This document shows positions 98 through 16,414 of a stretch of DNA of 16,414 bases, one piece after another. Source of the stretch: Deinococcales bacterium (GTDB taxonomy: Bacteria > Deinococcota > Deinococci > Deinococcales > JAAFIG01); NCBI GenBank assembly GCA_043778225.1, contig JAYWGM010000084.1, forward strand, positions 1-16,414, given 5' to 3'. Under the pieces are notes generated by a model. The model made no database searches, had not been told where the DNA came from, and saw only the letters and a program-made list of their open reading frames with translations. Numbering within the stretch: the stretch's first letter is position 1; every line of letters begins with the position of its first letter. A program made the position numbers and the translations under genes.

Positions 98-265
98 AAT
101 TCCCGTGTTGGTGCGGTTTTCTTCAGATAAGCCCTGAGTGCGGTCATGGAATCCGTGTACCGCTCGAGTACCGCCATGTTTTTTAAGTACCGCGTATTCT
201 GCTTCTAGCACCTCGAGCAGCAACCATTGCTCGAGGTGGAGTGTGCGGATTTCGTTCCAGTCCAT
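98..265 (-). pseudogene. Small hypothetical-protein pseudogene (frameshifted, 3' end cut by the repeat)
   Basis: ATG at 265 lies 6 nt after TACACT (277-272) and reads MDWNEIRTLHLEQWLLLEVLEAEY. After a +1 shift near the A6 run (184-179) it reads KNMAVLERYTDSMTALRAYLKKTAPTRELY and then enters the repeat at 97. Together the halves resemble a small uncharacterised family of pattern MxWxEIR..QWLL.E...AV.....DS..A...Y....P.RELY (recalled, not searched). Confidence 0.55.
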
Positions 266-390
266 GGTAGGAGTGTACATCAAGAGTGTTCAGTGTTTTC
301 TCGAGCTTCCCAATACCGATGCTTGGCAACCCAAGCTCGAGACTGCTCACCTCTTCACAAATTCCTCAGTTAAGGCGCATAATAAAGGCT

Positions 391-564
391 ATGGAATTTA
401 AACTTATTTCTGCTCCAGACCAAGAAATCTTTGAGAACCGTTTGCGTGACTTTATCGAAAGTCTTGGACGCAGTGCCACGATTGGCAACATCAACTTTTC
501 CACCGCCGTGATGCAAAATGGTGAAGTGATGTACAGCGTTTTGGTGGCGTTCCGCCGCGCCTAA
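391..564 (+). CDS. Small conserved hypothetical protein (57 aa, possibly DUF2758/Cse60-like beta-alpha-beta-beta)
   Basis: MEFKLISAPDQEIFENRLRDFIESL...INFSTAV...YSVLVAFRRA. ATG at 391 sits 7 nt after CATAAT (378-383). The 286 start in the ORF track adds a non-protein-like extension. Confidence 0.7.
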   Translation: MEFKLISAPDQEIFENRLRDFIESLGRSATIGNINFSTAVMQNGEVMYSVLVAFRRA

Positions 565-624
565 CAGCCATTTCTCATGCGATTCCTCACATAAAACAAT
601 GGGGGTATGGCGTAAAGTAGAGGT

Positions 625-1398
625 GTGACCATTGCTGCTCTAGCTCCTACGTTTAATCCTGCGCCGCAAAACGCCCCTTTTTTGGTGGCTCGAGGGCTGC
701 ACAAGCGCTTTGGACAACGTGAAGTGGTGGCTGGGGTTGACCTTGAGTTAGCTCGAGGCGAAATCGTGGCGCTTTTTGGTCCAAACGGGGCTGGCAAGAC
801 CACCACTTTTTATATGATGGTTGGCTTTGTTAAACCCAATTCGGGGACAATTCATTTGTCGCAAGCCGATATTACGCGCTTACCGATGCACTCGCGGGCT
901 CGTTTGGGTTTAGGTTATTTGCCCCAAGAACCCAGTGCTTTTCGCAAAATGACGGCTCGAGATAATTTACTCGCCATTCTCGAGTACCAAAAATTAACTC
1001 CAACCGAGCGGATGGACAAAGCCAATTCTTTACTCGAGGAGTTTCAGTTGTCGCACCTCGCCGATAAAATGGCGTACACGCTGTCGGGTGGCGAACGGCG
1101 ACGGCTCGAGATTGCCCGTAGCCTGACCACCAATCCAGATTTTATTTTACTCGATGAGCCTTTTACCGGTGTGGACCCAAAAAGTGTCCGCGAAATCCAG
1201 CGCTTGATTCGTGAACTGCGCGAAAAACGTGGGCTTGGGGTTTTTATCACCGACCATGCGGTGCGCGAAACCGTGGCGATTACTGACCGCGTTTATTTGA
1301 TGTGGGATGGTAAGGTGGTCTTTAAGGGAACACCCGAAGAGTTTGCTCGCAATTCTGAAGTCCGTCAGTATTACTTGGGCGAGGAGTTTGAATTATAA
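625..1398 (+). CDS. lptB: LptB-family ABC transporter ATP-binding protein
   Basis: Walker [10 protein letters not shown], LptB-typical [16 protein letters not shown], signature [13 protein letters not shown], Walker [14 protein letters not shown]-loop ITDH, C-terminal YLGEEF. Confidence 0.93.
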
Positions 1399-3120
1399 AT
1401 GTTGCTTTTTTGGGTGCTGTTGGTCTTAGGGGTTGCCTTAATTGGTGGCTCGATTGCTTGGCTTGGCGATTCGGTCGGGCGGCGTGTCGGGCGTAAACAC
1501 TTGCGCTTATTTGGTTTGCGCCCCAAAACCACTGGTTTGGTGGTTGCCATCAGCAGTGGTGTTTTGGTAGCACTGGCGACTGTTGGCACAGTTTCGCTTT
1601 TGGCACGCAGCACTGTAGACAATGCCCTAAAAGCCCCAGAAATGCGCTTGGAACTCGAGCAACTAAAAGGCAGCATCAAGAATATCAACAATGAGTATCA
1701 GAGCAGTAAAAATAAACTGATGAAAATGCTCGACCAGAGTCAACTCGAGCAGCAAGAATTTGAACGGATTCGCAACGAACTCCAAGCCCGACAAGACGAA
1801 CTCAGTGCTACAACTGCCTTAAATGGGCGTTTGGATGCCAGAATCCTTGGCTTAGAAACCGAACGCAATACCTTGGGAACACAAATTAAAAGTAAAACAG
1901 CCGAACTCCAACGCCTTGGTCTCGAGTCTAGCCAGCGCATTGACACGCTTCGCAAAGAATTAAAAACCTTAGAAACCCAGCGCAGCGAATCCACCAACCA
2001 AATTCAGCGTCTCAATACACAGCGTAACCAATTGCAGTCACGAATTAAAACCCTAGCTACAGAACGTACCGAACTCGAGAATAAAGTCGCCACAGCCCAA
2101 ACCGCAACCAATCAGGCATTGGCGCAACAACGCAGCCTCGAGACGACCGTCAACAATCTTGAAACCAACGTCAGCAACCTTGAAGCCGGACGCAAGAAAC
2201 TCGAGGCACAACAGAGCCAACTCGAGGCACAGCGCAACCAATTACAAAGCGAAAGTAACCAACTCAAAACCGAGCGCAATCAACTCAGTGCTTCGGTTGG
2301 ACAACTCGAGAATCAATCAGCGCAGTTAAAAAATCAATCCGATGTTTTAAGAAACGAGCGCAGTAAGCTCGAAAGCGACATCCGCGAACTAAATCAGACC
2401 CGTACCTCCTTGGAAGCCAGTGTCAATCGTTTAGAAACCCAAAATACGGCTTTAACGCAGCAACTCAATCGTGCCGAAAGCGAACTGCGCGATGCCCAAG
2501 AAGCCTTAGCCCAAGCCACCAGTGGTAATTTTATTTACCGTCAAGGCGATTTGGTGGCGCAACTGGTACTCGAGTCAAATTCAGCCGAAACACTGCGCGA
2601 CCAATTACAAAAATGGCTCAAACAAGCCTCACAAATTGCCCAAGGGCGTGGGGCAACCCGCAATAAAGCGGTGGTCTTAAAACCCAGCGCCGATTTAGAC
2701 CCGTACATTGCCCTCGCCCAAAAAAGTAAAGGCGCAGATTTGGTGCTGATGCGAACCTCGCGCAGTGTCACCCAGACTGGCTTAGAATTGCCAGTCACGC
2801 TCGAGGTTAAATCTAACGATGTTCTTTTTAGCAGTGGTCAACCGCTTCGTTCTCGAGAAATCAGCTTGGGTACAGGCAACAAACCCAACTCGAGTTGGCG
2901 GGTGGCATTTGAGAATTTGGTGCGCGAGACCGAACGAGATTTAATTGAACGCGGCGTACCAAAAGAAAATATCCCCGCGACTTTGGTTTCTAGTGCCGAA
3001 CTGACCGCCTTTATTGCCCAACTCGAGAGTCTGAGTGGTACGGTCTGGATTGCAGTCGCAGCGCGGCGCGATATTACACCGGCTGGACCTGTGCAGGTTT
3101 ATTTAAGTTTAATGCGCTGA
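1399..3120 (+). CDS. DUF3084-type membrane-anchored long coiled-coil protein
   Basis: Two N-terminal hydrophobic segments flanking IAWLGDSVGRRVGRKHLRLFGLRPKTT (DUF3084-like), about 290 aa of heptad coiled coil, then a globular C-terminus. Starts immediately after the lptB stop (TAA-ATG, 0 nt gap). Confidence 0.85.
   Translation: MLLFWVLLVLGVALIGGSIAWLGDSVGRRVGRKHLRLFGLRPKTTGLVVAISSGVLVALATVGTVSLLARSTVDNALKAPEMRLELEQLKGSIKNINNEYQSSKNKLMKMLDQSQLEQQEFERIRNELQARQDELSATTALNGRLDARILGLETERNTLGTQIKSKTAELQRLGLESSQRIDTLRKELKTLETQRSESTNQIQRLNTQRNQLQSRIKTLATERTELENKVATAQTATNQALAQQRSLETTVNNLETNVSNLEAGRKKLEAQQSQLEAQRNQLQSESNQLKTERNQLSASVGQLENQSAQLKNQSDVLRNERSKLESDIRELNQTRTSLEASVNRLETQNTALTQQLNRAESELRDAQEALAQATSGNFIYRQGDLVAQLVLESNSAETLRDQLQKWLKQASQIAQGRGATRNKAVVLKPSADLDPYIALAQKSKGADLVLMRTSRSVTQTGLELPVTLEVKSNDVLFSSGQPLRSREISLGTGNKPNSSWRVAFENLVRETERDLIERGVPKENIPATLVSSAELTAFIAQLESLSGTVWIAVAARRDITPAGPVQVYLSLMR
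2200..2241 (+). repeat. 21-bp tandem duplication (one heptad) inside the coiled coil
   Basis: CTCGAGGCACAACAGAGCCAA (2200-2220) followed by CTCGAGGCACAGCGCAACCAA (2221-2241), encoding LEAQQSQ-LEAQRNQ. Confidence 0.7.
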
Positions 3121-5175
3121 CTAGCGATTATAAAACCGTATCATGGCTTGACGTTGCTTGGTTATCATCGAGGAGGCTACGCCCGTGGTCTGCACCAGCG
3201 TCATGGTAATTCCAATCCCCGAAGCTGGCGGAATCACTTCTGCGACGTTGTTATTTTGGCTGTAAATACCAATAAAATCTCCACCGTTAAGCAGATTATC
3301 GCCATTGACATCTTTGATTGCCGCCATCAGGTATGAGCCACTTGCCAAATTAGGAAAAGTGTAATTGGTACTCGAGCCAGTACCCGCTAAGACCACAACT
3401 TTACTTTTTGTGGTATCGCAATCATCGGTCGCCACCAAATAAAAACACGCCAATACCTCTGTGCCTGCAATGCTTGGCGCAACGACTGGCGAACTTTGTA
3501 CATTGACAGCTAAGGCTGCTTTTCGCACCAAATTGCCAGATGTCCCCTGAATGGTGATGTTATAAGTACCTACCCCAACCGTGGCGGTCAGCACCATGGT
3601 CAGAATTGAATTATTTTGGCTAAAAGTCATCCCGTTTGGCGCACCACCAACCGCCAAAGCAACCGACCCATTAAAGCCACCAACGCTGTCAATCGTCAAA
3701 GCAATTTGGGTACTCGAGCTTGGCAGTACCCGCAGACTCGAGGGGTTGAGGCTAAGACTAAAGTCTGGTGGAGTCGTACCAACACTCAGGGCTTGCAAGG
3801 CAGCTTGGGCATCAATTAGACCCGCACCACAATCGCTCGAGGTTTTGGCTGTCCCAGAACCCGTGCATTTAGTTGGAGTTAAACTTCGGGCGGTGCGGGT
3901 CAGAATTTCGAGCGCCCGCGCAAAAATCAGGCTTGGGTCACGGCTTTTCATTAAGGCAAGCACGCCAGCCACGTGTGGGGCTGCCATTGAAGTGCCTTGT
4001 AAGTAGCGAAAATTAAATTGACTGGTGGTGTCATTGCGCCCAATACTCAGTACGCCATCTGGAAAACCATCATTGTTCAGGTCTTGACTCGAGTCACCTC
4101 CAGGTGCCATCACATCTATACGTGCGCCAAAATTACTGTACGGCGCTCGAGCATCGAGAAAATCGGTTGCCCCAACCGTGATGACCCCACTGCAACTGGC
4201 AGGGGTAAATTGTGAAGCGTCCAAGTTATCGTTCCCAGCCGCCACAACAATCATCTTTCCGGCAGCGTTAATCGCATTGATCGTTTCTTGATAAGCAGGT
4301 GATTGAGCGCAGTTGTACTTACCACCCAAGCTCATATTGAGAATAGCTGCTGGATTGGGATTTGCCACCACGCCAACCACCGACAAGCCAGCCGCCCAGC
4401 GCATGGCATCAAAAATATCGGAAGACGAGCCTCCACCAACCCCCAAAACCCGTACTGGTAAAATTTTTGCACCCCACGAAACACCAGCCACCCCAATGCC
4501 ATTGTTGGTTGCAGCCGCCACAGTTCCTGCCACGTGCGAACCGTGGTAGCTGCCGCCAGCCCGATCTTCTGGATTATTATCTCGCCCATTGCCATCATTA
4601 GCCCGTTGAGGGTCTGAGATAAAGTCAAACCCAGGCAGAAGTTTCCCAACAAAATCCGGATGCCCACCCAGAATACCCGAGTCAATCACCGCCACCGTTA
4701 CGGCATTGCTCTCGCCTTTTTCGATGTCCCAGGCTTGGGGTAAATTGATGTTCTGGTAATGCCATTGCGAACTAAAAAACTCGTCATTGGGTACAGCCAC
4801 TGCTTGCATGATGTAATTCGGTTGCGCCCAGACCACATCGGCTCGAGCTTGCAGGGCTTGCACCACACCACCCACATCGGCGCTACTCGAGCGCATCAGG
4901 CGAGCGTTCTCGAGACCCAAAGCCCGAACATTTTGCAAGGTTGCCCCAGACACTTGTAAACTCGAGGCATTCTGTGCCGAGAGACCACTTTTGAATTTAA
5001 CCAGCACTTCGTTTGGTACAAAAGGCGCATCTGAACCCGAAGAACTCGAGGCTATGGTCACTGTACCCGAAATGCTTTTATTGACCATAGGTGGTGGGTC
5101 AACCACAGGTGGGGTACTCCCTCCGCAAGCAATGAGCGTTGCTATTAAGCCCAAACCAATCAATCGGTTTTTCAT
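3121..5175 (-). CDS. Lipoprotein S8 (subtilisin-like) serine peptidase with C-terminal beta-sandwich domains
   Basis: Signal/lipobox MKNRLIGLGLIATLIA-C; prodomain FVPNEVLVKFK; catalytic motifs VAVIDSG, YHGSHVAG, GTSMAAPHVAG; oxyanion AAGN; C-terminal DFSLSLNP Ig-like repeat and DVNGDN Ca-binding-like loop. Start 5175 is preferred over 5184 because CATAAT (5188-5183) lies 7 nt upstream. Confidence 0.92.
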   Translation of the reverse strand: MKNRLIGLGLIATLIACGGSTPPVVDPPPMVNKSISGTVTIASSSSGSDAPFVPNEVLVKFKSGLSAQNASSLQVSGATLQNVRALGLENARLMRSSSADVGGVVQALQARADVVWAQPNYIMQAVAVPNDEFFSSQWHYQNINLPQAWDIEKGESNAVTVAVIDSGILGGHPDFVGKLLPGFDFISDPQRANDGNGRDNNPEDRAGGSYHGSHVAGTVAAATNNGIGVAGVSWGAKILPVRVLGVGGGSSSDIFDAMRWAAGLSVVGVVANPNPAAILNMSLGGKYNCAQSPAYQETINAINAAGKMIVVAAGNDNLDASQFTPASCSGVITVGATDFLDARAPYSNFGARIDVMAPGGDSSQDLNNDGFPDGVLSIGRNDTTSQFNFRYLQGTSMAAPHVAGVLALMKSRDPSLIFARALEILTRTARSLTPTKCTGSGTAKTSSDCGAGLIDAQAALQALSVGTTPPDFSLSLNPSSLRVLPSSSTQIALTIDSVGGFNGSVALAVGGAPNGMTFSQNNSILTMVLTATVGVGTYNITIQGTSGNLVRKAALAVNVQSSPVVAPSIAGTEVLACFYLVATDDCDTTKSKVVVLAGTGSSTNYTFPNLASGSYLMAAIKDVNGDNLLNGGDFIGIYSQNNNVAEVIPPASGIGITMTLVQTTGVASSMITKQRQAMIRFYNR

Positions 5176-5247
5176 AAAAACCATTATGCCTTAGTTTTTG
5201 CGTTTCATCGCAAAATGATATTTTTAATCCATCTGTCACGCAAATAA

Positions 5248-5817
5248 CTAAAGCAATTCAAGGAACTCTTGAATCACAAAAGCGGTCATGCCCCAAATAT
5301 CCACGCCCTGCCAATAATAATGCAGCACAGCCCGTTCACGAGTCTCAAAATGTGGCACTCGAGCCGAAAGCGGCAAGGTTTTTTGCTCATAAATTGGGTT
5401 TAGCTGTTGTAAATCTGTAATCGGCACATACAGCATTTGGGCAACTTCGGCAGGATTAGGTTTTAGAACACTTATACTCGAGACCACGCCAACCACTGGC
5501 ACAACATGAAACCCAGCCGGAGTCCAGACATCATCAAGTAGCCCTAAAACCTTAACCAGATTTGGCTCGAGTCCAATTTCTTCATGCGCCTCACGCAGAG
5601 CGGCTTCGATTGGTGTTTCGGCAGCATCTAAGCTACCACCAGCAAAAGCAATTTGACCTGAATGGGTGCTGAGGTTACTGGCGCGTTGGGTTAAAATCAG
5701 GCATGGCTCTGGCTCGAGCAGGATGGCAACCAGCACGGCGGCTTTTCTGAATTCTGGCAACTCGAGAATACGCCTCTGACGATTTGCTATCTTCTGCTCA
5801 AGCTGGGCTAGATTCAT
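5248..5817 (-). CDS. Nudix hydrolase, CoA pyrophosphatase (NudL/PCD1-like) subfamily
   Basis: NuCoA-like motif LILTQRASNLSTHSGQIAFAGG followed by Nudix box GSLDAAETPIEAALREAHEEIGL, then NPAEV and IWGMTA. Overlaps the mazG stop by 4 nt (ATGA). Confidence 0.9.
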   Translation of the reverse strand: MNLAQLEQKIANRQRRILELPEFRKAAVLVAILLEPEPCLILTQRASNLSTHSGQIAFAGGSLDAAETPIEAALREAHEEIGLEPNLVKVLGLLDDVWTPAGFHVVPVVGVVSSISVLKPNPAEVAQMLYVPITDLQQLNPIYEQKTLPLSARVPHFETRERAVLHYYWQGVDIWGMTAFVIQEFLELL

Positions 5818-6455
5818 GACAAATTCGTGGCTTTAGTAACAGCACTCTGGACTTGCATCTCCAGACGCTCACGCAGAATCACTTCCGAATTGACCCCCGT
5901 CGAACGCGCCCACGCCACGACCGCCTCAAGGACTGCTGCGATGCTGCTGACATCATCGTCGCCGTTTTCTAGGGCAGCAATTACGGCGCGTCTCGAGCCT
6001 TGCCCAACTTCGAGCGCTTTATGGATTTCATGGGTTCGTGCCAAAGCACCAAGGGCTTTGGGGACGCGCTCAGCAGGATGAAGTTCGGGTTTACCAGCCC
6101 GCTCAAGGGCTTTGATGTCGTTCCAATTTTGCACCACTTGAGCAGACCCCGAGACTTCAGTTGTTCCAAAAACATGAGGATGACGACGAATCAGCTTTTC
6201 GACGATTGCATTCTCGACCGTTTCGTAGGTAAAGCTACTTGTCTCTTCGGCAATTACACTATGAAAGGCAACTTGCAACAGCACATCACCCAATTCGGCT
6301 GCCAGTTCTAAGCGGTCTGGATTCGAGACTGCATCCACTGCCTCGGCAGCTTCCTCGAGTAAATACGGGCGCAGTGACTCGTGGGTTTGTTCAATATCCC
6401 ACGGACAACCGTCAGGGGCGCGTAAACGGCGCATAATTTCCAGCAAACGATTCAT
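5814..6455 (-). CDS. mazG: MazG-family nucleoside triphosphate pyrophosphohydrolase
   Basis: LRAPDGCPWDIEQTHESLRPYLLEEAAE, ELGDVLLQVAFHS, KLIRRHPHVF. The second MazG domain is short and degenerate. Confidence 0.9.
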   Translation of the reverse strand: MNRLLEIMRRLRAPDGCPWDIEQTHESLRPYLLEEAAEAVDAVSNPDRLELAAELGDVLLQVAFHSVIAEETSSFTYETVENAIVEKLIRRHPHVFGTTEVSGSAQVVQNWNDIKALERAGKPELHPAERVPKALGALARTHEIHKALEVGQGSRRAVIAALENGDDDVSSIAAVLEAVVAWARSTGVNSEVILRERLEMQVQSAVTKATNLS

Positions 6456-6598
6456 AGAAAAACCTTCATGGGTTGCATCCTAACTCGAGAAAGAAAAAAT
6501 TGCAGTATTGGGATGACCCTCTCCCAACTGTCTTGACCACCAAAGCAGTGAGACCAAATACACAAAAGTGTCATCCAAATCGGTCATAATAAGAATTC

Positions 6599-9500
6599 AT
6601 GACGGTTGCCACCAGCCAACGCTATCAGTTTGTCCGTGAACTCGGGGCTGGCGCAATGGGTCAAGTTTCCTTGGCATTGGATACCCAAACCGGCACATTG
6701 GTGGCAATTAAAAAAATGCACGAGATGGTGGCGCTAACTGGTGGCGCTCGAATGCGCCGCGAGTTCAGGTCGTTATCGCAAATAGACCACCCAAACGTGG
6801 TGCGGGTTCTCGAGCTAGGCGAAGAACGCGGGATGCCATTTTTGGTGATGGAGTTTATCAAAGGGCAGGATTTATCCGATTGGCTTGGCACAAATCCAGA
6901 TTTCCCAACAATTGCCAAGATGTTTGCTGGAATTGCTGGCGCACTTGGGGCAGTTCACGAAAAAGGCGTGATTCACCGCGACCTTAAACCGGATAACATC
7001 CGTGTAACGACCGAAGGACAGCCTAAACTGATGGATTTTGGACTGGCAAAAACCATGGAAGGCACGGTCGCCTTGACCAAAGTTGGAGCGATGGTTGGCA
7101 CAGCCCTCTATATGGCACCCGAGCAATGCCGAGGCGCACAACTCGATTACCGCGCCGATTTATATGCCCTTGGGGCAGTGCTGTACTGGGCATTGACTGG
7201 GCAGCCACCATTTATGGGCGACAGCATTGTCCAAGTGATTATGCAGCATATTCAGCAAGCTCCTGTGCCGCCAAGAAGCCGCAACCCCAATATCCCCGAA
7301 AGCCTCGAGACGATTTGTTTAGCGCTGTTGGCAAAAAACCCTGCTGAACGCCCGAGCAGCGCCGCGTCCGTGCGTGAAGCCCTGCTCAGGGCATTAGAAG
7401 CACCGTTCTCGCAGACCATCCAACTCGAGGCGCAGTCGGCTCGAGCCGATGCGTTGCTGCTTGCGCCTTTGATTGGGCGGGAAAGCGAACTTGAGTCCTT
7501 GGCTGGTTTATTTGAAACTGGCTTGGGAGGCTTACATACTTTAGTCGGCGATGTTGGCACAGGTAAAACCCGACTTTTACGGGCGCTTGGCGAACGGGCT
7601 CAGATTTCTGGCGCTCGGCTTGGCATTGGCGAAGCGATTCAAGATGACCCAACCCCATTTGGAACAGTCAAACGTTTAATCGAAAACCTCGAGAAACACT
7701 ACCGCTTTATTTTTGATGAAGTCTCGGAGACCAGCCGTAGCGAATTGGCGCGTATTGCCCCACAATTTGGCAGCGCTCCGCCTTCGGATTCCAACCTGCC
7801 AGCCGAAGTCGCCCGACTGCGCTTATTTGAAGCCTTTACCGAACTTTTAGAGCGGGTCTCGAGCCTGACGGTTGTGGCGCTCGAGAACTTGCACTGGGCA
7901 GACGAGAGTACCCTCGCACTGTTGGCTCATGCCTTACGGGCTGCGCCAGATGCTCGCGTGATTATCAGCTACCGACTCGAGGATTTACCCGAAGGGCAAC
8001 TAGCTCCCAAAGGCTTCCCTAAGCCGCGTAAAACCATTCAGTTGACTGCCCTGACCGACGAGCAAATGCGTGAGTTACTACAAGCCCTGCTCGGCGGCGA
8101 AATCGAAACTGCCCTCGAGACCGAACTGGTTTCGCACGCTGGTGGCAACCCGTGGGTTTTAGAAGAACGCCTCAAAGCAATGCTCGAGAATGGCGCAATT
8201 CAACGCCGCGCCCAAGTCTATGAATGGAACAGAAGTCTGACAGGTGTTCCCGAAAGTCTTGGCGAATTGTTGGCGCATCGCTTGGCGGTTTTAGAGCCAA
8301 ATGTGCTTGAGTTTGCTCGGGCTGCCAGTATTTTAGGTCGGGCATTTTGGTTTGAAGATGCTCGAGCCATGCTCGACTGGAACGACGACGATGCTCTGGA
8401 TGCCTTAGAGAGTTTATCTCGAGCCAGATTGATTGCCGAAACGCCCGGCACAAACGGCGAAGGTTTTCGGTTTACCCACCCGATGTACAACGAACTGCTG
8501 CGCGAAGGCATCATGCGCTTAAAACGTAAACGCCTTCATGCCAAAGCTGCCACGCTGCGCTTAGGCAAAGCCGAACCACTCGAGCTTGCCGAGCATTGGT
8601 ACGCTGCCGAAAATTATCACCAAGCGCTCGAGTTTGCAATGCTGGCTGGTACAAGCGCCCAAGCTGCTTTTGCTTACCCACAAGCCGAACGGGCGTACCG
8701 CTTGGTTCTTGAGGCTGCCACCCATTTGGAAAACGACAACAGCGCCTCGGAAGCCCAGCAACTGCTGCGGATGCAAGCCAAGCACCATTTGGGCGAGGTC
8801 TTGAGTGCCTCTGGGAAAACAGCCGAAGCCCAAGATTTATGGCGCGATGTGATCGAACACGCCCAATGGTTGCCAAACAGCAGCGAGTTGATTGCTAAAG
8901 CCAAAGTCAACTTGGTTCGATTATTGCGTCAAGCAGGGTCAATAGAAACAGCCCTTGAGTTAATTGGTGAACCAAAAACGGAAGATGCCTTATTTACTCA
9001 ACTTAGTATTGAACTTGCAGCTACCTTACGTCAAAAAGATCCAAAAAAAGCCAGAGCGTATGCCCTTAGAGCGCTGACATACGCTAAGAAGCAAAACGAT
9101 TTTCTGGGCATTGCCCTTGCCCTTCGCAGTTTAGCAAAAACACTTGAAATAGGAAAACGAGCTATTTTTCTAGCAAAAAAAGCAGTTTTCTACGCATCGG
9201 AATCAACGAATGTTTACATTTTAGGAGCAATCTGGAACGATCTTGGCTTGGTCTATTACAATTCAAATGATCGAAAGAATGCCTTTGAGGCTTGGGAAAA
9301 TGCCCAAAAATATATTGAAACTGTTGGCGACATGAACTTACTGACCACCATCGAAACCAATAAAGCCTTGATTCTGATGCAGGAACTCAATTTTAACCAA
9401 GCCGAACAAATGTTTAACCGAACTGAACAGCTTTTTTCACGCATGGGGTTTGTTCAAAATGAACGATATGCCATCTATAATCGAGCCTTATGTTTGTATG

Positions 9501-10024
9501 CACAGAATCAATTGACCCAAGCACGAACCGAACTCGAAAAAATACGCGAACATCAACTCGAAAAAGTCTCACGTATCTGGGAAGCCCGCATCACCATCGA
9601 ACTTGGTGATGGCTTTGTCCTCGAAACACCAAAACTCGAGCCGCAGGAATATGGCTATGGTTATTACTTATTGACTCAAGCCTTACTTGCTTTGTCGTTT
9701 GGTGACTACCAAAAAGTCTGGGATATGACCATCGAAACAACCCATGACTCAGACTGGCATTGGGCATTGGCTCGAGTTCATGCAGGTTGGCGATTGGGAC
9801 AACTGGATGAGGAAGCCATTAAGAAAGTGCTTGAAGGTACTGCAAATGACCCTGCAATCACGACCGAATTAACCCAAGAATATGCCGAATTTATTCGTCT
9901 GGTGCTGGGAATATGGACATTAGAAAATCGTCGGCGGCTCGAGTTAGCAGCCCAACACTATTTGGCTACCCCAATTGGTGTGTTGGCTCGAGATGTCATG
10001 CTTTCACTAGCAGACGCTTCATAA
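6599..10024 (+). CDS. Hanks-type Ser/Thr kinase fused to a STAND-like P-loop ATPase and a TPR region
   Basis: Kinase motifs GAGAMG, VAIKK, HRDLKPDN, DFG, YMAPE, DLYALG. ATPase motifs LIGRESEL, Walker A GDVGTGKT, Walker B-like VALENLHWAD, GGNP, FRFTHP. Helical TPR-like C-terminus (WNDLGLVYY, YNRALCLY). No transmembrane segment seen. Confidence 0.9.
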   Translation: MTVATSQRYQFVRELGAGAMGQVSLALDTQTGTLVAIKKMHEMVALTGGARMRREFRSLSQIDHPNVVRVLELGEERGMPFLVMEFIKGQDLSDWLGTNPDFPTIAKMFAGIAGALGAVHEKGVIHRDLKPDNIRVTTEGQPKLMDFGLAKTMEGTVALTKVGAMVGTALYMAPEQCRGAQLDYRADLYALGAVLYWALTGQPPFMGDSIVQVIMQHIQQAPVPPRSRNPNIPESLETICLALLAKNPAERPSSAASVREALLRALEAPFSQTIQLEAQSARADALLLAPLIGRESELESLAGLFETGLGGLHTLVGDVGTGKTRLLRALGERAQISGARLGIGEAIQDDPTPFGTVKRLIENLEKHYRFIFDEVSETSRSELARIAPQFGSAPPSDSNLPAEVARLRLFEAFTELLERVSSLTVVALENLHWADESTLALLAHALRAAPDARVIISYRLEDLPEGQLAPKGFPKPRKTIQLTALTDEQMRELLQALLGGEIETALETELVSHAGGNPWVLEERLKAMLENGAIQRRAQVYEWNRSLTGVPESLGELLAHRLAVLEPNVLEFARAASILGRAFWFEDARAMLDWNDDDALDALESLSRARLIAETPGTNGEGFRFTHPMYNELLREGIMRLKRKRLHAKAATLRLGKAEPLELAEHWYAAENYHQALEFAMLAGTSAQAAFAYPQAERAYRLVLEAATHLENDNSASEAQQLLRMQAKHHLGEVLSASGKTAEAQDLWRDVIEHAQWLPNSSELIAKAKVNLVRLLRQAGSIETALELIGEPKTEDALFTQLSIELAATLRQKDPKKARAYALRALTYAKKQNDFLGIALALRSLAKTLEIGKRAIFLAKKAVFYASESTNVYILGAIWNDLGLVYYNSNDRKNAFEAWENAQKYIETVGDMNLLTTIETNKALILMQELNFNQAEQMFNRTEQLFSRMGFVQNERYAIYNRALCLYAQNQLTQARTELEKIREHQLEKVSRIWEARITIELGDGFVLETPKLEPQEYGYGYYLLTQALLALSFGDYQKVWDMTIETTHDSDWHWALARVHAGWRLGQLDEEAIKKVLEGTANDPAITTELTQEYAEFIRLVLGIWTLENRRRLELAAQHYLATPIGVLARDVMLSLADAS

Positions 10025-10065
10025 ATATAATCTTTTCAATTTACTCATCTAATTTTTCAAGGCTC

Positions 10066-10074
10066 TGCTAGGAT
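10066..10074 (+). promoter_or_regulatory. Extended -10 promoter for a leaderless transcript of the lipoprotein
   Basis: TGcTAGGAT (10066-10074), 6 nt before the ATG at 10081; no canonical Shine-Dalgarno. Confidence 0.55.
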
Positions 10075-10080
10075 ACAAGC

Positions 10081-11082
10081 ATGAAAATGCAAATGCTGGT
10101 TTGTCTTGCGACCACTGTCTTAATTTTGACAGGCTGTCCAACAACTCGTCCACTGGATCAACAAAATCAACAAAATCTACGTGAGTTTGGACCAAAAGCG
10201 GTTGCAAATTCGACCCAGTTTCTGCGTGGCGCTCCTGTCTCCTCAGAATCTGCTACGCTTTATATCCAACAATTCTCAAGCCAAAATCCAGAAGTTCGTG
10301 CGCTTATCGCTAAAACTCCTAAGAATTTAGGTATATTGCTTTCCCCTATCCAGCCACAAACAAATAGCTTGCAGGGAGTCGCAAATTTAATTCCAGCCTT
10401 TTCAAAGTTTAAGCTCCAACCACAGGCGGGTGGAAACGCTTGTGGTCCTGCCACTCCACCCCTAGACAATGATGGCGATGGCATTCCAAATCTATTTAAT
10501 TACACATTTGATTGTGGCGGAGCATTTTATGATGGTAAAGCTGCTGTCCTTACGGGGACTGTCTTTATAGATGACAAAGGTGATAACGACCCGAATAGTG
10601 GCTATGATGTCAAACTGACCAATTTAATTTTTGCCACTGTAGATACCACTGTCACTCCCAATACTGCATATGGCTTCGGCACGAATTTAGACACACAAGT
10701 CAAAGTTGGTAGTGGCGGCAAATACACTATTTCGCAGTCTTTGGAGTTTGCGGTCGTTGAAGTTAGTGGTAATAAAGTCTCAACTTCTGAATATATTTCA
10801 AATGGCACTTTTGAGTATACCCCTCAAGCCAATGCAGCCAGCAATGACCGTTTTGGTCGAGGCACATTAAAATTCGATAATAAGTTTGCCTTCAAGCTAA
10901 ACAAAAATGGCGAAAAATACGAATCGAGCTTGCAGTTTTCTTCGACTGGAATGATTGTAGATCGTGATGGTTGTGGAAGCGAAAAAATGGTCAACAGTGG
11001 CAACGTCAAATTCACCGACGGTAAAAACACCTTGACTTGGACAATTACGGGTTGCGGCGACGGAACTTGGAATTACCAATAA
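10081..11082 (+). CDS. Uncharacterised beta-rich lipoprotein
   Basis: MKMQMLVCLATTVLILTG-C lipobox; DNDGDG Ca-binding-like loop; four further Cys; Thr/Asn/Gly-rich beta-strand pattern. Confidence 0.8.
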   Translation: MKMQMLVCLATTVLILTGCPTTRPLDQQNQQNLREFGPKAVANSTQFLRGAPVSSESATLYIQQFSSQNPEVRALIAKTPKNLGILLSPIQPQTNSLQGVANLIPAFSKFKLQPQAGGNACGPATPPLDNDGDGIPNLFNYTFDCGGAFYDGKAAVLTGTVFIDDKGDNDPNSGYDVKLTNLIFATVDTTVTPNTAYGFGTNLDTQVKVGSGGKYTISQSLEFAVVEVSGNKVSTSEYISNGTFEYTPQANAASNDRFGRGTLKFDNKFAFKLNKNGEKYESSLQFSSTGMIVDRDGCGSEKMVNSGNVKFTDGKNTLTWTITGCGDGTWNYQ

Positions 11083-11100
11083 ATTTAGCTCGAGCTTTGC

Positions 11101-11129
11101 AGTGCAGCTTTCAACGGCTGCACTTTTTT
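11101..11129 (+). terminator. Intrinsic terminator after the lipoprotein gene
   Basis: AGTGCAGC (11101-11108) / GCTGCACT (11117-11124) stem followed by a T run to 11129. Confidence 0.8.
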
Positions 11130-11145
11130 CTTGGTAAGTTAAAGC

Positions 11146-12054
11146 ATGAACCTAGACCCACGTTTAGAAGTTTTTGCCAAACACCGCACTGTCCGTAAAT
11201 ATAAACCCCAGCCACTCGAGGACGGGCATCTCGAGCAAATTTTATACTGCGCTCAACACGCCCCAACCGATGCCACAGCGCAGATGTACAGCTTTATTCG
11301 CTTAACTGGCGAAACCAAAACTCGAGTTGCGGAACTGACCAACAATGCCCATATCGAGACTGCTGCCGAGGCTTTTATTATTTGTGCCGATGTGCAGCGC
11401 CTAAAGCTTTTACTCGAGCATCAAGGCTATGAATTTGGCTCATGGAGTGCGGTGGCGGTTCATTTTGGCATTGGCGACGCAGTGCTGGCTGGTCAAACGA
11501 TGCTTCATGCCGCCGAGTGCTTGGGCTATCAAGGCTGCTGGATTGGTGGGGTTCTGAGTGCGCTCGAGCAGATTATTGAATTGTGCGAGTTACCAAACGG
11601 GGTGCTGCCCTTTGCGGGTCTAACAATTGGTGTACCCGATGAAACCCCAGCCCAGCGCCCACGCATCCAGTCAGAACTGGTCATGCACCAAAATACGTAC
11701 CGTATGCCAACCACTACCGAACTCGAGACCGCCCTACAAGACATGGCAGCCATCACCGCCAGAGGCGATTGGGCGCAGAGTCTAGCCCGTTATTTTGCCA
11801 AAGGCGGCACGATGGAAGCTCGAGAAATCAGCTTGCGACGCGCCCTCGAGCAGCAGGGCTTTAACCATGTAGAAAGCGACACCAACACCCTTTTTGCTCG
11901 AGCCGAAAGCGCTGGCTACCCAGAACTGCTGATTCGGCGTGGTCTGCAAGGATTTCAGGCGTGGGTTGACCGCCCAGAAAAAGCCCATGGTGGTCAGGGC
12001 GATACCCCAAGCGCTGCCCTCGAGAATGCCGTTTTGGAAGCCGAACGCGACTGA
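11146..12054 (+). CDS. NfsA/FRP-family nitroreductase (flavin reductase) with C-terminal extension
   Basis: [61 protein letters not shown], and the NfsA-like end motif LEQQGF followed by about 63 extra residues. Confidence 0.85.
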
Positions 12055-12281
12055 TTAACATATTTTGGTATGACTCGAGCTTTTTGATTGCAAATGCGCT
12101 ACAATGTCAGCCATGTCCAAATGCAAGGCTCAACAATTTGTCTCGAGTAGGCATTTTTTGTGTGCTGGTCATCTCAATCAACACCCAGATTGCGAAGTTT
12201 TTTTTTACACCCCAATCACCTAACCTCGAGAAAAGCGACCGTCAAATTTGGCTTATTCGCCCTTTTTCTTTGGAGGTTTTT

Positions 12282-13442
12282 ATGTACGACCCTAAACCCG
12301 AACATCACTTTACTTTTGGACTCTGGACAGTTGGCAATATCGGGCGCGACCCGTTTGGCAACCCGACCCGCAGCCCGCTTTCTGCGCCGTATATTGTCCA
12401 TAAACTCGCCGAGCTTGGTGCGTATGGCGTAAATCTGCACGACAACGATTTGATTCCTATTGATGCCACGGCTGGCGAACGTGATCAGCTTTTGCGTGAT
12501 TTCAAAAAAGCCTTGGCAGATACTGGCATGAAAGTTCCGATGGCAACCACCAACTTATTTGGCGACCCCGCCTTTAAGGATGGGGCTTTTACCAATGCCA
12601 ATGCCCAAATTCGTGGTTATGCGATTCAAAAAGCGATGCAGAGCATGGATTTGGGGGCAGAACTGGGCGCAGAAACCTATGTCTTTTGGGGTGGACGCGA
12701 AGGCGCAGAAGTGGACGCTGGCGGCAATACCTTGAATGCTTTAGCCTATATGCGCGAAGCCATGAATTTTTTAGCCGAGTACAGCCAAGACCAAAAGTAT
12801 GGTTTTAAGTTTGCGATCGAACCCAAGCCCAACGAACCTCGAGGCGATATTTACTTTCCTGTGGTTGGTGCGGCGCTGGCATTTATTTACACGCTCGACC
12901 AACCCGATTTGTTTGGCTTAAACCCCGAAGTTGCCCACGAAACGATGGCTGGCTTAAATTTTGTTCATGCCGTAGCCCAAGCCATAGATGCAAAAAAACT
13001 TTTTCATATTGACCTCAACGACCAAAAAATGGGGCGCTTTGACCAAGACTTGCGCTTTGGTGCAGAAAACATCAAACAAGCCTTTTTGCTGGTCAAATTA
13101 CTCGAGGATACTGGCTACGCTGGCATGAAGCACTTTGATGCTCACGCCCTGCGAACCGAGGACGAAGCTGGCGTTTGGGAATTTGCCAAAGGCTGTATGA
13201 GAACCTATTTGATTTTGTCCGAGAAAGTCAAACAATTTAATAGCAATACCGAAATTCAAGCCTTACTCGAGTATTACCACCTCAAAGACCCGACAGTCTC
13301 GAGCTTGACTGCCAAGTACAGCCCAGACAATGCGGCTGCCCTGAAAGCCCACAGCTTTGACCGTGTAGCGCTTGGCGCTCGTGGACCCGGACTCGAGAAA
13401 ATTGACCAACTGACGATGGAACTCTTGATGGGTATTGGCTAA
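12282..13442 (+). CDS. xylA: Xylose isomerase (class I, Thermus/Streptomyces type), 386 aa
   Basis: [81 protein letters not shown] at 12272-12276 before ATG 12282 (not the 12084 start in the track). Confidence 0.96.
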
Positions 13443-13454
13443 ACTTCTACTTCT

Positions 13455-13493
13455 GCTCGAGCCATTGTTCTTGTATACTGGCTCGAGTTTTTT
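13455..13493 (+). terminator. Intrinsic terminator after xylA, built from two CTCGAG copies
   Basis: CTCGAGCCA (13456-13464) / TGGCTCGAG (13479-13487) stem followed by T6 (13488-13493). Confidence 0.6.
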
Positions 13494-14117
13494 ATGAACA
13501 TTTTTTCTTTGATGCGCGAACCAATCAACACCATCACTCATGGAATCGGGGCTGTCATGGCACTCGTTTTTACCATTCTGATGGTGGTGCTGTCTGGTGG
13601 GCAGTGGGTTTTTGGCGTTTTTGGTATCAGCATGGTGATTTGTTATACCGCCAGCACCTTGCATCATGGAGTGCGTTCGAGTGCCACAATCGAAGAAGGC
13701 TTACGCCGTTTTGACCACAGCGCTATTTATTTGCTGATTGCTGGAACATACACCCCAATTCTGTGGAATGTTCTCGAGGGACAAGCCCGTCTGTACTGGC
13801 TGCTAGGAGTCTGGGGCATGGCTGGACTGGGCATCGTCTTAAAAACTTTTTCAAGACCTCCAGAGTGGCTTTCCTTGTCTATTTATGTTGGCATGGGCTG
13901 GTTAGCGGTGCTGCTCTTGCCTAAATTTATTTCTGGTTTATCGTTGGCGGCACTGGTTGCCCTCGTGATTGGTGGACTGTGTTATACCTTTGGCGTACCA
14001 TTTTATGCGCTCGGCACTCGAGTCTTAAAAAAGGGTTTATGGACATCGCACGAAATCTGGCATTTATTTGTCTTGGCTGGCAGCATAAGCCATTTTGTGA
14101 TGGCAATCAATCTTTAA
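13494..14117 (+). CDS. Haemolysin III / PAQR family membrane protein (TrhA/YqfA-like)
   Basis: EPINTITHGIG, ASTLHH, RRFDHSAIYLLIAGTYTP, YVGMGW, GGLCYTFG, HEIWHLFVLAGS..HF; about 7 hydrophobic segments. Confidence 0.92.
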   Translation: MNIFSLMREPINTITHGIGAVMALVFTILMVVLSGGQWVFGVFGISMVICYTASTLHHGVRSSATIEEGLRRFDHSAIYLLIAGTYTPILWNVLEGQARLYWLLGVWGMAGLGIVLKTFSRPPEWLSLSIYVGMGWLAVLLLPKFISGLSLAALVALVIGGLCYTFGVPFYALGTRVLKKGLWTSHEIWHLFVLAGSISHFVMAINL

Positions 14118-15756
14118 TTTTTGGATGGGTGCTGTTGCGTCCAGCATTTTTTGCGGCATACAAAGCCCGGTCTGCAATTTCAAACAACTTATCTTGATGT
14201 TCAAACGATGTATCATCACACCAGCCAAGGCTAATGGTGACTTTTAAGTCTGGATCAATATCGGTGAAATCCAGCAAAGCAATGACCTCACGGATTCGTT
14301 CACACAAACGGTAGACCGCCACACCACCAATCCCCGGCAACACCAAAGCAAATTCCTCGCCACCATAACGAGCCACCAAATCATGTTCTCGGCAATGATT
14401 GTGCAGAATTTTAGCAATGCGTTGCAAAACTTGATCGCCTGAAGCGTGCAAATATTTATCGTTGACCAACTTAAAATGATCAATATCCAATAAAACAACA
14501 CTGAATTTGGTACGTGCTTCTCGAGCTTCGGCAAAGACTCGAGCCACAAAAGTTTCTAAAGTCCGACGGTTGGCAAGACCAGTTAAGGCATCCTCGCTGG
14601 CTTGACGATCCAATTGGGCATTTAAGTGGGTTAATTCTTCAGAACGCTGTTGATACCAAATGGTTTCGCGGCGAATGTTTTCGCGTTCGATTTTGACGGC
14701 TAAAGCCTGTGCTTGACGTTCGGCGCTCTCGGTACGCACCAAAGAATCAAATCTATAAAACAGTTCAAAATGCTCCAAAGCCTGTTCAAATTCTCTACGC
14801 GCCCGAAAGACCTTATAAAACTCTTTATGCACCTCGGACAAAAGTTTCTTAGCAGTATTAACCTCAAAATGCGCTCGAGCTTGGGTGAGACACTTTAATG
14901 CAACCTCAAACTGACGTTGCGACGCAAAAACCCGTCCAAACTGCAATTCGCACTCACCAAGCGACTCGAGCGAACCATAGCGTGTTGCATGAACTGTCGC
15001 CTGTTTAACTGCCTCTTCAGCAACATCAAAGCGCTCGAGACCACACATGATTTTAGACTTAATGGTGTAGGCATCAACAAGTAAAGCCTGATCATCCGCC
15101 CGAATTAAATAGGTTAGTGCCAAATCCAAATGCTTGAGCGCAATGTGTAAGTCGTCAGGTTGAAATCCTGCACCCTTGTCTTCGATAAGCACATTCGCTA
15201 GTGCCATCAGCGCACCACCTTCGGCTCGAGTTCGTCCCATTTTGCGTGCCAAAGTAATGGCTTGGTGAGCATAATCAATCGCAATGCTCCAGCCCTTCAA
15301 ATGCCGATGCGTTTGACTCAGATAAATCAGGCTGGCTAGTCGCCCACCTTCATTTTGATGGGTTGCAGCTAACTCAAGCGTATCTTCAAAAATCTGAAGG
15401 GCATCGGAATAATCTCCGAGATCTAAATAAAGCGTCCCAATTTCTACTTGACAGGCTATTGCCATTGCAAAAGCCTCAGACAAACAATACAAATCAAAGG
15501 ATTTAAAGTAATTTTCCAGAGCTTGCTTAATTTCAGATTTTCGCAAATGAACTTTGGCGATCCAGCGTAGTCCAAAAGCACGCATGGTATGTTGATTTTC
15601 ACTTGCAGCAATGAGTAACTGTGTACCTAACTCCAATTGAGTCTCAGCAGAACTTTCTATAAATTCAATGTAAACCGCACTAAAGACAGCAGGCATTTCC
15701 TCAGCAATAGAAACACGGCTGATTCGATTGACAGCGCTCTGGATATTTGGTTTCAT
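14107..15756 (-). CDS. Cytoplasmic TPR-domain diguanylate cyclase (TPR-coiled coil-GGDEF)
   Basis: About 340 aa of TPR-like helices, coiled linker, DALTGLANRR, LLDIDHFKLVND, I-site RxxD (REHD), active site RYGGEEF, ADRALYAAKNAGRN. No signal peptide or transmembrane segment. The 3' end overlaps the convergent hlyIII gene by 11 nt. Confidence 0.92.
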   Translation of the reverse strand: MKPNIQSAVNRISRVSIAEEMPAVFSAVYIEFIESSAETQLELGTQLLIAASENQHTMRAFGLRWIAKVHLRKSEIKQALENYFKSFDLYCLSEAFAMAIACQVEIGTLYLDLGDYSDALQIFEDTLELAATHQNEGGRLASLIYLSQTHRHLKGWSIAIDYAHQAITLARKMGRTRAEGGALMALANVLIEDKGAGFQPDDLHIALKHLDLALTYLIRADDQALLVDAYTIKSKIMCGLERFDVAEEAVKQATVHATRYGSLESLGECELQFGRVFASQRQFEVALKCLTQARAHFEVNTAKKLLSEVHKEFYKVFRARREFEQALEHFELFYRFDSLVRTESAERQAQALAVKIERENIRRETIWYQQRSEELTHLNAQLDRQASEDALTGLANRRTLETFVARVFAEAREARTKFSVVLLDIDHFKLVNDKYLHASGDQVLQRIAKILHNHCREHDLVARYGGEEFALVLPGIGGVAVYRLCERIREVIALLDFTDIDPDLKVTISLGWCDDTSFEHQDKLFEIADRALYAAKNAGRNSTHPKIKD

Positions 15757-15815
15757 AGTAAAGACCCAAACACAAGTCTGGATAATACCCTAAACTTGTC
15801 TCTGCCCTCTAACGA

Positions 15816-15983
15816 CTAGCAGTCGCTTCCACAAAAACGTTTTGCCCCTGAAGGTGGCGATGTTGGTTTATCTTCTGGACTGGTGCTGGATTCGCTCGAG
15901 ACTTGATCAACTCCGCCAGCCGCAACTGTTGCTCCAAGAAGACAAAGTAATAGCCCCAACCCGATTATTAATTTCTTAATCAT
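15816..15983 (-). CDS. Small secreted peptide (55 aa), candidate signalling pro-peptide
   Basis: MIKKLIIGLGLLLCLLGATVAA (Sec-type signal), a Ser/Thr/Pro/acidic linker, then KR-FCGSDC-stop. GGGGG SD-like run 5 nt upstream of ATG 15983; ends 59 nt before the TPR-GGDEF start. Confidence 0.75.
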   Translation of the reverse strand: MIKKLIIGLGLLLCLLGATVAAGGVDQVSSESSTSPEDKPTSPPSGAKRFCGSDC

Positions 15984-16007
15984 TTGAACCCCCGTTTGAT
16001 CACACAA

Positions 16008-16061
16008 AATGTACACAAACTGACCTTACAGCAGACTTACTGTAAGAATTTCGTAAGAATT
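16008..16061 (-). promoter_or_regulatory. Promoter/operator of the peptide gene: -10 TACATT plus four CTTAC/GTAAG boxes
   Basis: Minus-strand -10 TACATT at 16013-16008. CTTAC at 16025 and 16036, GTAAG at 16042 and 16053 (11-bp period within each pair, dyad centred on 16041). No consensus -35. Confidence 0.6.
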
Positions 16062-16101
16062 AAATTGACCTGTCAATCACAAACTAAAAGCCTCTTTTGC
16101 G

Positions 16102-16151
16102 AAATGTGAAAAACCACACATTTATATCGAATACGTGTGAAAAAATTCATA
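16102..16151. promoter_or_regulatory. Two CRP-family-like sites
   Basis: AAATGTGA-AAAACC-ACACATTT (16102-16123) and TGTGA-AAAAAT-TCATA (16136-16151), each one mismatch from TGTGA-N6-TCACA. Confidence 0.5.
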
Positions 16152-16171
16152 CTTTAGCCAAAATACAGACC

Positions 16172-16199
16172 TTGACAGCCCCCACAAAAACGCTATACT
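16172..16199 (+). promoter_or_regulatory. Sigma70-type promoter for the T-box leader
   Basis: TTGACA (16172-16177), 16-nt spacer, TATACT (16194-16199); predicted +1 near 16206, right at the T-box 5' end. Confidence 0.8.
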
Positions 16200-16205
16200 C
16201 GAGAC

Positions 16206-16414
16206 AGCAACGACTGGGAAAGTACCGCGCCGCGCACCAACAGAGAAGTGTTCTCGAGGCTGAAAGGAACACTGGGAAAGGCAAACGCGAGAAAGTCACC
16301 CACGAGCATGAGGAAAGAACAGGTGGGCGGTCACACGCCCACACCAGTAGAATCCTCTGGGAGCGCCCATCACAGCGTAGCAAGAGCGCTCGACCAGTTT
16401 TTTAAGAACTCGGC
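16206..16414 (+). ncRNA. T-box riboswitch leader, Val (GUC) specifier; antiterminator lies beyond the window
   Basis: Stem I: basal GA motifs, TGGG(16215-18)/CCCA(16299-302), AGTA (16221-24), CGCG/CGCG, AG bulge AGAGA (16242-46), AGTGTTC/GAACACT (16247-53/16267-73) closing a GCTGAAAG distal loop, specifier loop GAA-A-GTC-A (16291-98). Stem II: GAGGA/TCCTC (16310-14/16353-57) with purine-rich internal loop and GTGGGCG/CGCCCAC. Confidence 0.85.

Follow-up and report, generated by a model that had tools for sequence, protein, structure and literature searches.

A densely iterated CTCGAG word in Deinococcota and AddAB as its candidate reader

The 16,414-nucleotide stretch of DNA analysed here, referred to as the window, is contig C84 of the genome of a Deinococcales bacterium (G000; 4,029,277 bases in 107 contigs, 48.7% G+C, 89% complete), and a single palindromic hexamer, CTCGAG, recurs throughout it. 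The word is present in exactly 93 copies spanning 163..16258 (5.7 per kb), which form part of a genome-wide set of 24,877, or one per 162 bp. It is a family-wide, phylum-rooted iterated word of the kind known from cyanobacteria as highly iterated palindromes (HIPs), and is not HIP1 itself. Judged by its sequence statistics, it appears to act most like an unpolarised, very dense Chi site; it is not classed as a Chi site here, since the polarity of such sites was not seen. Furthermore, we give an even chance to the proposal that CTCGAG would serve as a Chi-like stop signal for the AddAB helicase-nuclease of this lineage.

Abundance, conservation and effect on proteins

Dinucleotide shuffling of the window leaves 2.35 ± 1.43 copies of CTCGAG (maximum 8 in 200 shuffles). 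A first-pass annotation of the window had put the count at about 90 and the expectation at about 4; the exact count bears out the former, and the lower expectation makes the excess about 40-fold, above what had been claimed. Within the 12 open reading frames (ORFs) of the window, the copies are distributed by frame as 37/14/3 on the plus strand and 7/7/10 on the minus strand, and a further 15 lie outside these ORFs. This mapping confirms the annotation's placing of the word in all three frames, on both strands and at every intergenic position that it had listed. The sites at 163, 212 and 230 are probably coding, as they lie inside a stop-free minus-strand frame that runs past the contig end.

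Throughout G000, the word accounts for 3.7% of all bases (6,174 copies per Mb), with a density of 4.0-10.6 per kb on each contig. It is the most frequent hexamer, with an observed-to-expected ratio (O/E) of 15 under a second-order Markov model. The palindrome ranking second has a ratio of 1.9, and the majority of the other four- or six-base palindromes are strongly avoided (GGCC 0.01, GATC 0.18). The one-mismatch neighbours of CTCGAG have ratios of 0.29-1.28, such that the depletion of neighbours, proposed earlier as a check, is not uniform. The 2,536 ORFs of at least 200 amino acids hold 19,552 copies (11,559, 3,912 and 4,081 by frame), compared with about 1,630 (about 1,140, 240 and 245) after synonymous-codon shuffling in three runs. 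With proteins and codon usage fixed, the excess is therefore 12-fold overall and 10-, 16- and 17-fold by frame. Codon-order shuffling, also in three runs, leaves about 920 copies in all, and the density outside ORFs (6.1 per kb) is the same as that inside. These values uphold the annotation's reading of the word as a HIP1-like signal at the level of the DNA and not a codon effect, and the genome-wide word count that it had suggested gives the same answer under the Markov and the codon-aware null. Neither of the two outcomes that it had set against itself, loss of the enrichment under codon control or confinement to Leu-Glu codon pairs, was seen.

The word has raised the frequency of Leu-Glu in the proteins of G000. 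Leu-Glu is the top dipeptide, with an O/E of 2.32 compared with 0.97 for Glu-Leu, and 69% of Leu-Glu pairs are encoded by CTC GAG, while CTC makes up 9% of leucine codons elsewhere. TTG GAA (241) and CTG GAA (154) are rare among Leu-Glu pairs, though TTG and CTG are the commonest leucine codons elsewhere in the genome.

CTCGAG is scarce in genes below 38% G+C (0.94 per kb, as against 6-7.8 in typical genes), and the largest gaps between copies are low-G+C islands. The tRNAs hold 6 copies where 33 would be expected; a 26-tRNA array on one strand, covering most amino acids, is found at C19:9937-14171, and no rRNA motif was found in the assembly. The word does not cluster around dnaA in G000, and its flanks are near background, with no consensus. 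Among flank combinations, CCTCGAGG is under-used in G000 (about 0.3) and in its relative G013 (0.5), yet it is the top octamer in G042, a genome of the neighbouring family. Very-short-patch repair of T:G mismatches was rejected as a source of the word, the C-to-T neighbours CTTGAG and TTCGAG being the least depleted ones and in surplus among Leu-Glu pairs.

The sites are also conserved. In 208 orthologue pairs between G000 and 360 kb of G003, with a third-position identity of 59%, 937 of 1,524 copies (61%) are kept, in all frames, compared with 30% for all hexamers. CTCGAG is present in both genomes at 577 of the 1,064 Leu-Glu pairs that they have in common. Partners in G003 with a single mismatch are mostly C-to-T decay products, and the partners that encode a dipeptide other than Leu-Glu include LD, FE, IE, LA and LQ. 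Four-fold-site divergence does not depend on the distance to the word (0.52-0.54), a weak test given that nearly every base is near a site.

The distribution of the word was followed through 355 genomes of the phylum, in which the family of G000 is denoted f1, the neighbouring family f3, and further families f2, f4 and f5; the close relatives of G000 are all metagenome-assembled. All 19 f1 genomes carry CTCGAG at 4.3-6.8 per kb. Genus g7, which we take by number and size to be Deinococcus and which supplies 111 of the 355 genomes, has less than 0.4 per kb. Within f3, to which g7 also belongs, the density is 3.6 per kb in G042 and 7.0 in G156, as against 0.3 in G157, a congener of G156, and the f5 genera g13, g26 and g27 have 1.4-3.5 per kb. 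Extended forms also occur, with GCTCGAG in G262, G331, G260 and G027 and CCTCGAG in G042 and G187, while AAGAGGT is not enriched in 23 f4 genomes (maximum 0.26 per kb).

Neighbour exclusion and a non-palindromic form

Close pairs of CTCGAG are scarce: relative to the rate at large distances, they occur at 0.40 for spacings of 9-18 bp and at 0.87 for 30-60 bp. Most control words lack such a deficit, though at the shortest spacing it is also seen for three less frequent palindromes. With the protein fixed, the occupancy of Leu-Glu pairs by CTCGAG rises from 0.29 where the nearest site is less than 12 bp away to about 0.75 beyond 100 bp (n = 16,598), and the effects of the neighbours on the two sides are additive. 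Each copy of the word thus makes a further one less likely over about 100 bp to either side. No periodicity was found up to 1.2 kb in G000, the pair autocorrelation being flat from about 80 to 1,200 bp.

Since a palindrome reads identically on both strands, the orientation of this effect is best seen in the f3 genome G154, which iterates the non-palindromic form CCMGAG/CTCKGG (CCAGAG and CCCGAG). In the sequence sampled (stretches L218, L219 and L265-L284), there are 2,830 copies in 440 kb, or 6.4 per kb, in all frames; Pro-Glu is the top dipeptide (2.09), and CTCGAG is avoided at 0.18. Genome-wide, CCAGAG reaches 4.5 per kb in G154, 1.6 in G153 and 1.5 in G155, the first three ranks among 124 f3 genomes, and the next genome has 1.3.

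At 9-90 bp in G154, pairs of CCMGAG in the same orientation occur at 0.61-0.73 of the far rate, and pairs in opposite orientation at 1.05-1.07 (odds ratio 0.65, p = 4e-12). The corresponding ratio over 60 abundant hexamers ranges from 0.62 to 1.89, with one unrelated word lower than CCAGAG. With proteins fixed, the occupancy of 5,829 opportunities rises from 0.21 to 0.47 with distance to a copy in the same orientation, and is flat with distance to an opposite one. This same-orientation exclusion has a z of 14.7, while 16 control words, the hexamer outlier included, do not exceed 1.5. Furthermore, CCAGAG suppresses CCCGAG in the same orientation only (z = 8.6). In G153 and G155 together, for which the test rests on 120 kb, the same-orientation exclusion is weak (z = 2.7); the 5-mer CCAGA, tried as the signal in these two genomes, was rejected, as it displays no exclusion.

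The exclusion of same-orientation copies alone indicates that whatever reads CCMGAG in G154 does so on a single strand or in a single direction, and thus suggests that the signal is strand-specific, in the sense of a statistical and not a functional orientation effect. We infer that CTCGAG and CCMGAG are forms of one signal, because they differ by one to two bases, exclude each other and have the same effect on their neighbours. Both the non-palindromic form and the same-orientation exclusion test are new here.

AddAB and the alternative explanations

AddAB stops at Chi in the 3'-ended strand (PMC4614115), and same-orientation exclusion is what one would expect of an enzyme that travels in one direction and halts as soon as it meets a word in the right orientation. 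In G000, candidate genes for the two subunits are located at C79:31168-33813 (addA) and C32:43473-45914 (addB), both below the NCBIfam curated cut-off; they lie apart in this genome and adjacent in G006 and in g5 genomes. The predicted fold of the G000 AddB best matches B. subtilis AddB (Foldseek E = 2.5e-28; mean confidence score, pLDDT, 79), the profile match has an E-value of 5.5e-9, and the four invariant cysteines are kept. Positions aligned to Gln42, Trp73, Arg132 and Phe210 of the B. subtilis protein are kept or conservatively changed.

The distribution of the enzyme follows that of the word most closely within f3. The AddA of G000 has an orthologue in all 18 f1 genomes that were searched. 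It also has one in most genomes of f2, f4 and f5, whereas f3 yielded just five among 124 (G042, G156, G153, G154 and G155), in a search that scored two or three candidates per genome and in which misses occur. All five carry the signal, as CTCGAG in G042 and G156, as CCMGAG in G154, and weakly in G153 and G155; that CTCGAG is missing from G153-G155 had appeared to contradict the link until the second form was seen. In none of the remaining 119 does CTCGAG exceed 0.46 or CCAGAG 1.3 per kb. Within f3, the signal is therefore confined to the five genomes with an AddA orthologue. A search for AddB confirms the same five f3 genomes, and did not find AddB in G157, G041 or G355. The congeneric pair is a case in point: G156 possesses both AddA and AddB and 7.0 CTCGAG per kb, while G157 (5 contigs, 95% complete) has neither subunit and 0.3 per kb. 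Under the codon-aware null, an O/E of at least 3 for one word form was found in 12 of 20 AddA-positive and in none of 8 AddA-negative samples of 10-75 kb, among which kin are not independent. AddAB is described as absent from Deinococcus (PMC9751324), in agreement with the f3 profile found here. The same source reports that addAB mutants of T. thermophilus transform far better (PMC9751324); incoming DNA is thus among the substrates of the enzyme, and offers it ends that have no polarity.

Together, these observations allow a mechanism to be proposed. AddAB would move in from a DNA end, degrading until it met a correctly oriented copy of the word. Each new copy would then save DNA, or help incoming DNA from kin to recombine, and its value would fall when a copy in the same orientation was already near. 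A palindrome would serve both directions at once, which would explain why the highest densities are those of CTCGAG. Breaks at random places, caused by drying, radiation, restriction or incoming DNA, and not by fork collapse, would explain the missing strand bias, and intact mismatch repair would keep mutation low enough for a weak advantage per site to hold. That AddAB is the reader and mismatch repair the condition seems to us a balanced bet. A wider account is somewhat less probable than that, namely that AddAB-keeping Deinococcota filled their chromosomes with a Chi word in both directions, in the dialects CTCGAG, CCTCGAG, GCTCGAG and CCMGAG, rewriting their proteomes, and that Deinococcus responded to mass DNA breakage by losing AddAB and the word together; a palindromic Chi would then be one origin of HIPs, and the exclusion test would find such signals from sequence alone, those of cyanobacteria included.

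However, several observations weigh against AddAB as the reader. The AddB equivalents of Thr44 and Arg70 are not kept, the equivalent of the base-reading Thr44 being Ser, Gly, Asp or Ala among f1 genomes that have one and the same word, and the pocket sorts uncleanly by word form, in a register taken from a weak alignment. Furthermore, AddAB is not sufficient: the O/E is 0.5-0.9 in G233, at most 1.8 in G345, G023 and G342, and about 2 in G031 and G033. An enrichment of CCTCGAGG in G233 (5.5 under the Markov model) is gone under the codon-aware null, such that this genome counts against the proposal. AddB was not found in G003, which is 94% complete and has 5.2 sites per kb. The independent losses of AddAB are few, about three by our count, and any gene lost along with it would give the same pattern. 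The strand-specific result was obtained in the relative G154 and not in G000, and the exclusion shadow is nearly symmetric (0.41 and 0.33 on its two sides), which gives no sign of a direction of travel. Polarity is missing as well: CCMGAG has no regional strand bias over 22 stretches of G154 (chi-square 14.4, df 22), and no flank skew of CTCGAG is visible around the G013 chromosome. Unlike Chi, CTCGAG is palindromic in f1, displays no replication-strand bias and is about 30 times denser than the Chi of E. coli, which is polarised (PMC8022716). In f2, moreover, the ratio of CTCGAG to GAGCTC is at least 3.3 in 31 of 32 MutL-positive genomes and in 2 of 69 MutL-negative ones, which were chosen by the same completeness filter.

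This last association speaks for mismatch repair, for which the word would be a strand signal: a site-specific nicking partner of MutS-MutL would cut one strand there, and biased repair would fix new copies. A strand-specific nick would likewise yield same-orientation exclusion, a biased-repair model of this kind has been proposed for HIP1 (Elhai), and three AddA-positive samples without the word (G345, G023 and G342) are also without MutL. Yet G+C content, kinship and the avoidance of GAGCTC all confound the f2 ratio, and in f3 MutL does not separate word-bearing from word-free genomes. Six of the f3 genomes sampled have MutL but no AddA, and the word is absent from the five DNA samples of these that were tested and from G151; G043, G098 and G105 have at most 0.2 CTCGAG per kb. 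Conversely, GCTCGAG has an O/E of 4.0 and 3.0, on small counts, in the MutL-negative G159 and G163. Elhai's model reaches saturation at about one site per 1,000 nt, compared with one per 160 here, the unchanged four-fold-site divergence near sites gives it no help, and no nicking partner was identified. We therefore regard mismatch repair as the reader as unlikely. MutS is present in G156; in f2, MutL was not found in 69 of 102 genomes, and MutS1 is also missing in G345, G021 and G159. A tag for DNA uptake or cell-to-cell transfer, spread by preferential entry and recombination as in Neisseria and the Pasteurellaceae, is a distinctly unlikely explanation. The lineage-specific forms, lack of strand bias, distorted proteins and surplus of C-to-T decay neighbours do resemble uptake sequences, the very strong avoidance of other palindromes is in keeping with much exchange between kin amid many restriction systems, and ComEC is present in 5 of 5 genomes tested, along with a DprA motif. 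A role in tagging DNA for uptake has also been suggested for HIP1 (PMC13756078, section 14). ComEC is, however, also present in the word-free G157 and hence does not discriminate, a hexamer with no flanking consensus would be a poor tag for kin, and a receptor that simply binds the duplex should saturate with either orientation, whereas same-orientation copies alone exclude each other; a polar transfer motor may escape this objection.

A methylation-coupled cause, which the annotation had put forward, found no support in f1, and we hold it to be highly unlikely that the word accumulates because an orphan CTCGAG methyltransferase marks it. Active N6-methyladenine (m6A) enzymes for CTCGAG with no listed nuclease are known from Marinithermus hydrothermalis, Meiothermus chliarophilus and M. 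ruber (PMC4752239, Table S3), and a PaeR7I-like protein of G030, 59.5% identical to the annotated paeR7IM, has matches in 16 of the 355 genomes. Nevertheless, the PaeR7I-type methylase was found in none of 18 f1 and none of 124 f3 genomes, the word-rich G156 and G042 included, with up to three candidates scored per genome, and an XhoI-family nuclease in none of 5 genomes. There are at least 23 DNA methylase genes in G000, many beside a likely nuclease gene, and seven in the single-contig f1 genome G013 (one C5, two D12-type, one type IIG and three HsdM-type), none of which is orthologous to a G000 gene; the C5 gene has no site. Searches with five Pfam families and two protein queries thus found no conserved CTCGAG methylase for f1, and the known enzymes are presumably patchy protectors of an already abundant site and not its cause. 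A close relative of M.TaqI (E = 1e-126) is encoded in G025 (L144:811-2154, minus strand), with no adjoining nuclease seen in the 3.3-kb locus and no orthologue in G000. Binding at regular intervals by a nucleoid or chromosome-organising protein has a very small chance of being correct. It would suit the even density and the short-range exclusion, and long-range periodicity is reported for HIP1 (PMC5861425), but the pair autocorrelation is flat, no cluster surrounds dnaA, and steric exclusion would be independent of orientation. Orientation-specific exclusion in G154 and the missing short-range periodicity also count against the simple forms of the uptake or chromosome-organisation signal that the annotation had entertained. 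Finally, a codon or dipeptide preference, or an assembly artefact, is next to impossible: although the Leu-Glu frame holds 59% of coding copies, the codon-aware nulls and the density outside ORFs rule out the former, and the word recurs in every f1 genome and at orthologous positions.

If AddAB is indeed the reader, CTCGAG would be a Chi site for a phylum in which none was found described in the literature searched; it would also be the densest Chi known to us and a clear case of a repair signal that alters thousands of protein positions. For thirty years HIP1 has lacked an explanation, in part since a palindrome conceals whether one strand alone is read. The Deinococcota offer a denser HIP-like word, a non-palindromic form in a relative, and a congeneric pair with and without both word and AddAB, and the phylum contains cultured genera that have CTCGAG and methylome data; the cause is therefore testable with a standard nuclease assay.

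Known iterated words and further features of the window

Like HIP1 (GCGATCGC) and the alternate HIPs GGCGCC, GCsGC and rCCGGy of cyanobacteria (PMC4390886, PMC5861425, PMC13756078), CTCGAG is one short palindrome spread across genes and spacers in all frames, kept between relatives, variable between lineages and of unproven function. Genome-wide over-representation beyond codon usage and orthologous conservation in all frames, the tests of the HIP class, were both found here. The word differs from HIP1 in phylum and in sequence (CGATCG has an O/E of 0.11 in G000), in having a non-palindromic variant with strand-specific exclusion, and in its higher density, 6,174 per Mb as against 300-2,700 (Elhai, Table 2); its fold excess is lower, as it is a hexamer. 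Unlike the HIP class as described by Elhai, no resident methylase for part of CTCGAG was found with the families and queries named above. No description of CTCGAG as an iterated repeat or Chi in Deinococcota was found in the literature searched, outside which lie most subscription journals and the supplements of oligomer surveys, and the word goes unmentioned in the sections of the HIP1 paper available to us (PMC4390886).

As with Chi sites of RecBCD and AddAB (PMC4614115, PMC8022716), the word is short, species-specific, over-represented and scarce in recently acquired, low-G+C DNA; furthermore, its putative cognate AddAB is present, with a B. subtilis-like AddB fold. The form in G154 shows orientation-specific exclusion as a statistical pattern, not as functional proof of action in one orientation. 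Vibrio is described as having Chi candidates without polarity, and H. influenzae as having weakly polarised ones (PMC8022716). Orphan CTCGAG methylases of Nocardia, Meiothermus and Marinithermus, the last two from the same phylum, recognise the same six letters (PMC4752239). In Nocardia, however, CTCGAG clusters at the replication origin only, the one context in which the main text of that paper, as far as available to us, brings up the word, while in G000 it is spread over the whole genome with no gathering at dnaA, and the search of f1 did not yield the enzyme.

The DNA uptake sequences of Neisseriaceae and uptake signal sequences of Pasteurellaceae are abundant, strand-neutral and protein-distorting, and occur in dialects. 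CTCGAG differs from them in being six and not 9-12 bases long, in lacking a flank consensus, in being several times denser and in its orientation-dependent exclusion.

Within the window, several of the 93 copies have a defined setting. An example of a host gene is the Ser/Thr kinase-AAA-TPR gene at 6599..10024 (plus strand), which contains sites and has orthologues throughout the genus. Two sites lie upstream of a small ORF with a likely start at 391 (300..341), and one between the divergent mazG-like and kinase genes (6484..6489). Another directly follows the stop codon of the ORF at 10081-11082 (11089..11094), three precede a xylose-isomerase-like gene with a likely start at 12282 (12074..12230), and two intergenic ones lie 26 bp apart (13456..13487). 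At the contig end, a divergent T-box-like leader (16201..16403, plus strand) carries the site at 16253 in the distal loop of stem I, where the annotation had placed it; the T-box itself is a weak Rfam match (34.9 bits, below the gathering score of 93; E = 4.7e-6), and the Rfam scan of the window gave no match above the gathering score.

Two public runs, both belonging to a single study, have Logan contigs that contain long pieces of the window without differences. This rules out a simple assembly slip; the runs may be the source samples, and hence are not independent support. In a 1,247-base contig of run X2, 12 of 13 differences fall in the roughly 100 bp at 7129-7231, a cluster that resembles a short recombined tract in the population.

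In G000 as a whole, GGCC is counted 262 times on both strands and GGCGCC has 3 sites, in a genome with its many DNA methylase genes. The hits of a viral-contig scan for triple CTCGAG sites were mainly G+C-rich contigs that showed no connection with this host. A clustered regularly interspaced short palindromic repeat (CRISPR) array at C80:17-2691 has CTCGAG in 10 of its 43 spacers, and no spacer matches the host assembly elsewhere; the invaders therefore carry the word as densely as the host does, which would be expected of a tag that protects DNA and not of a target for restriction.

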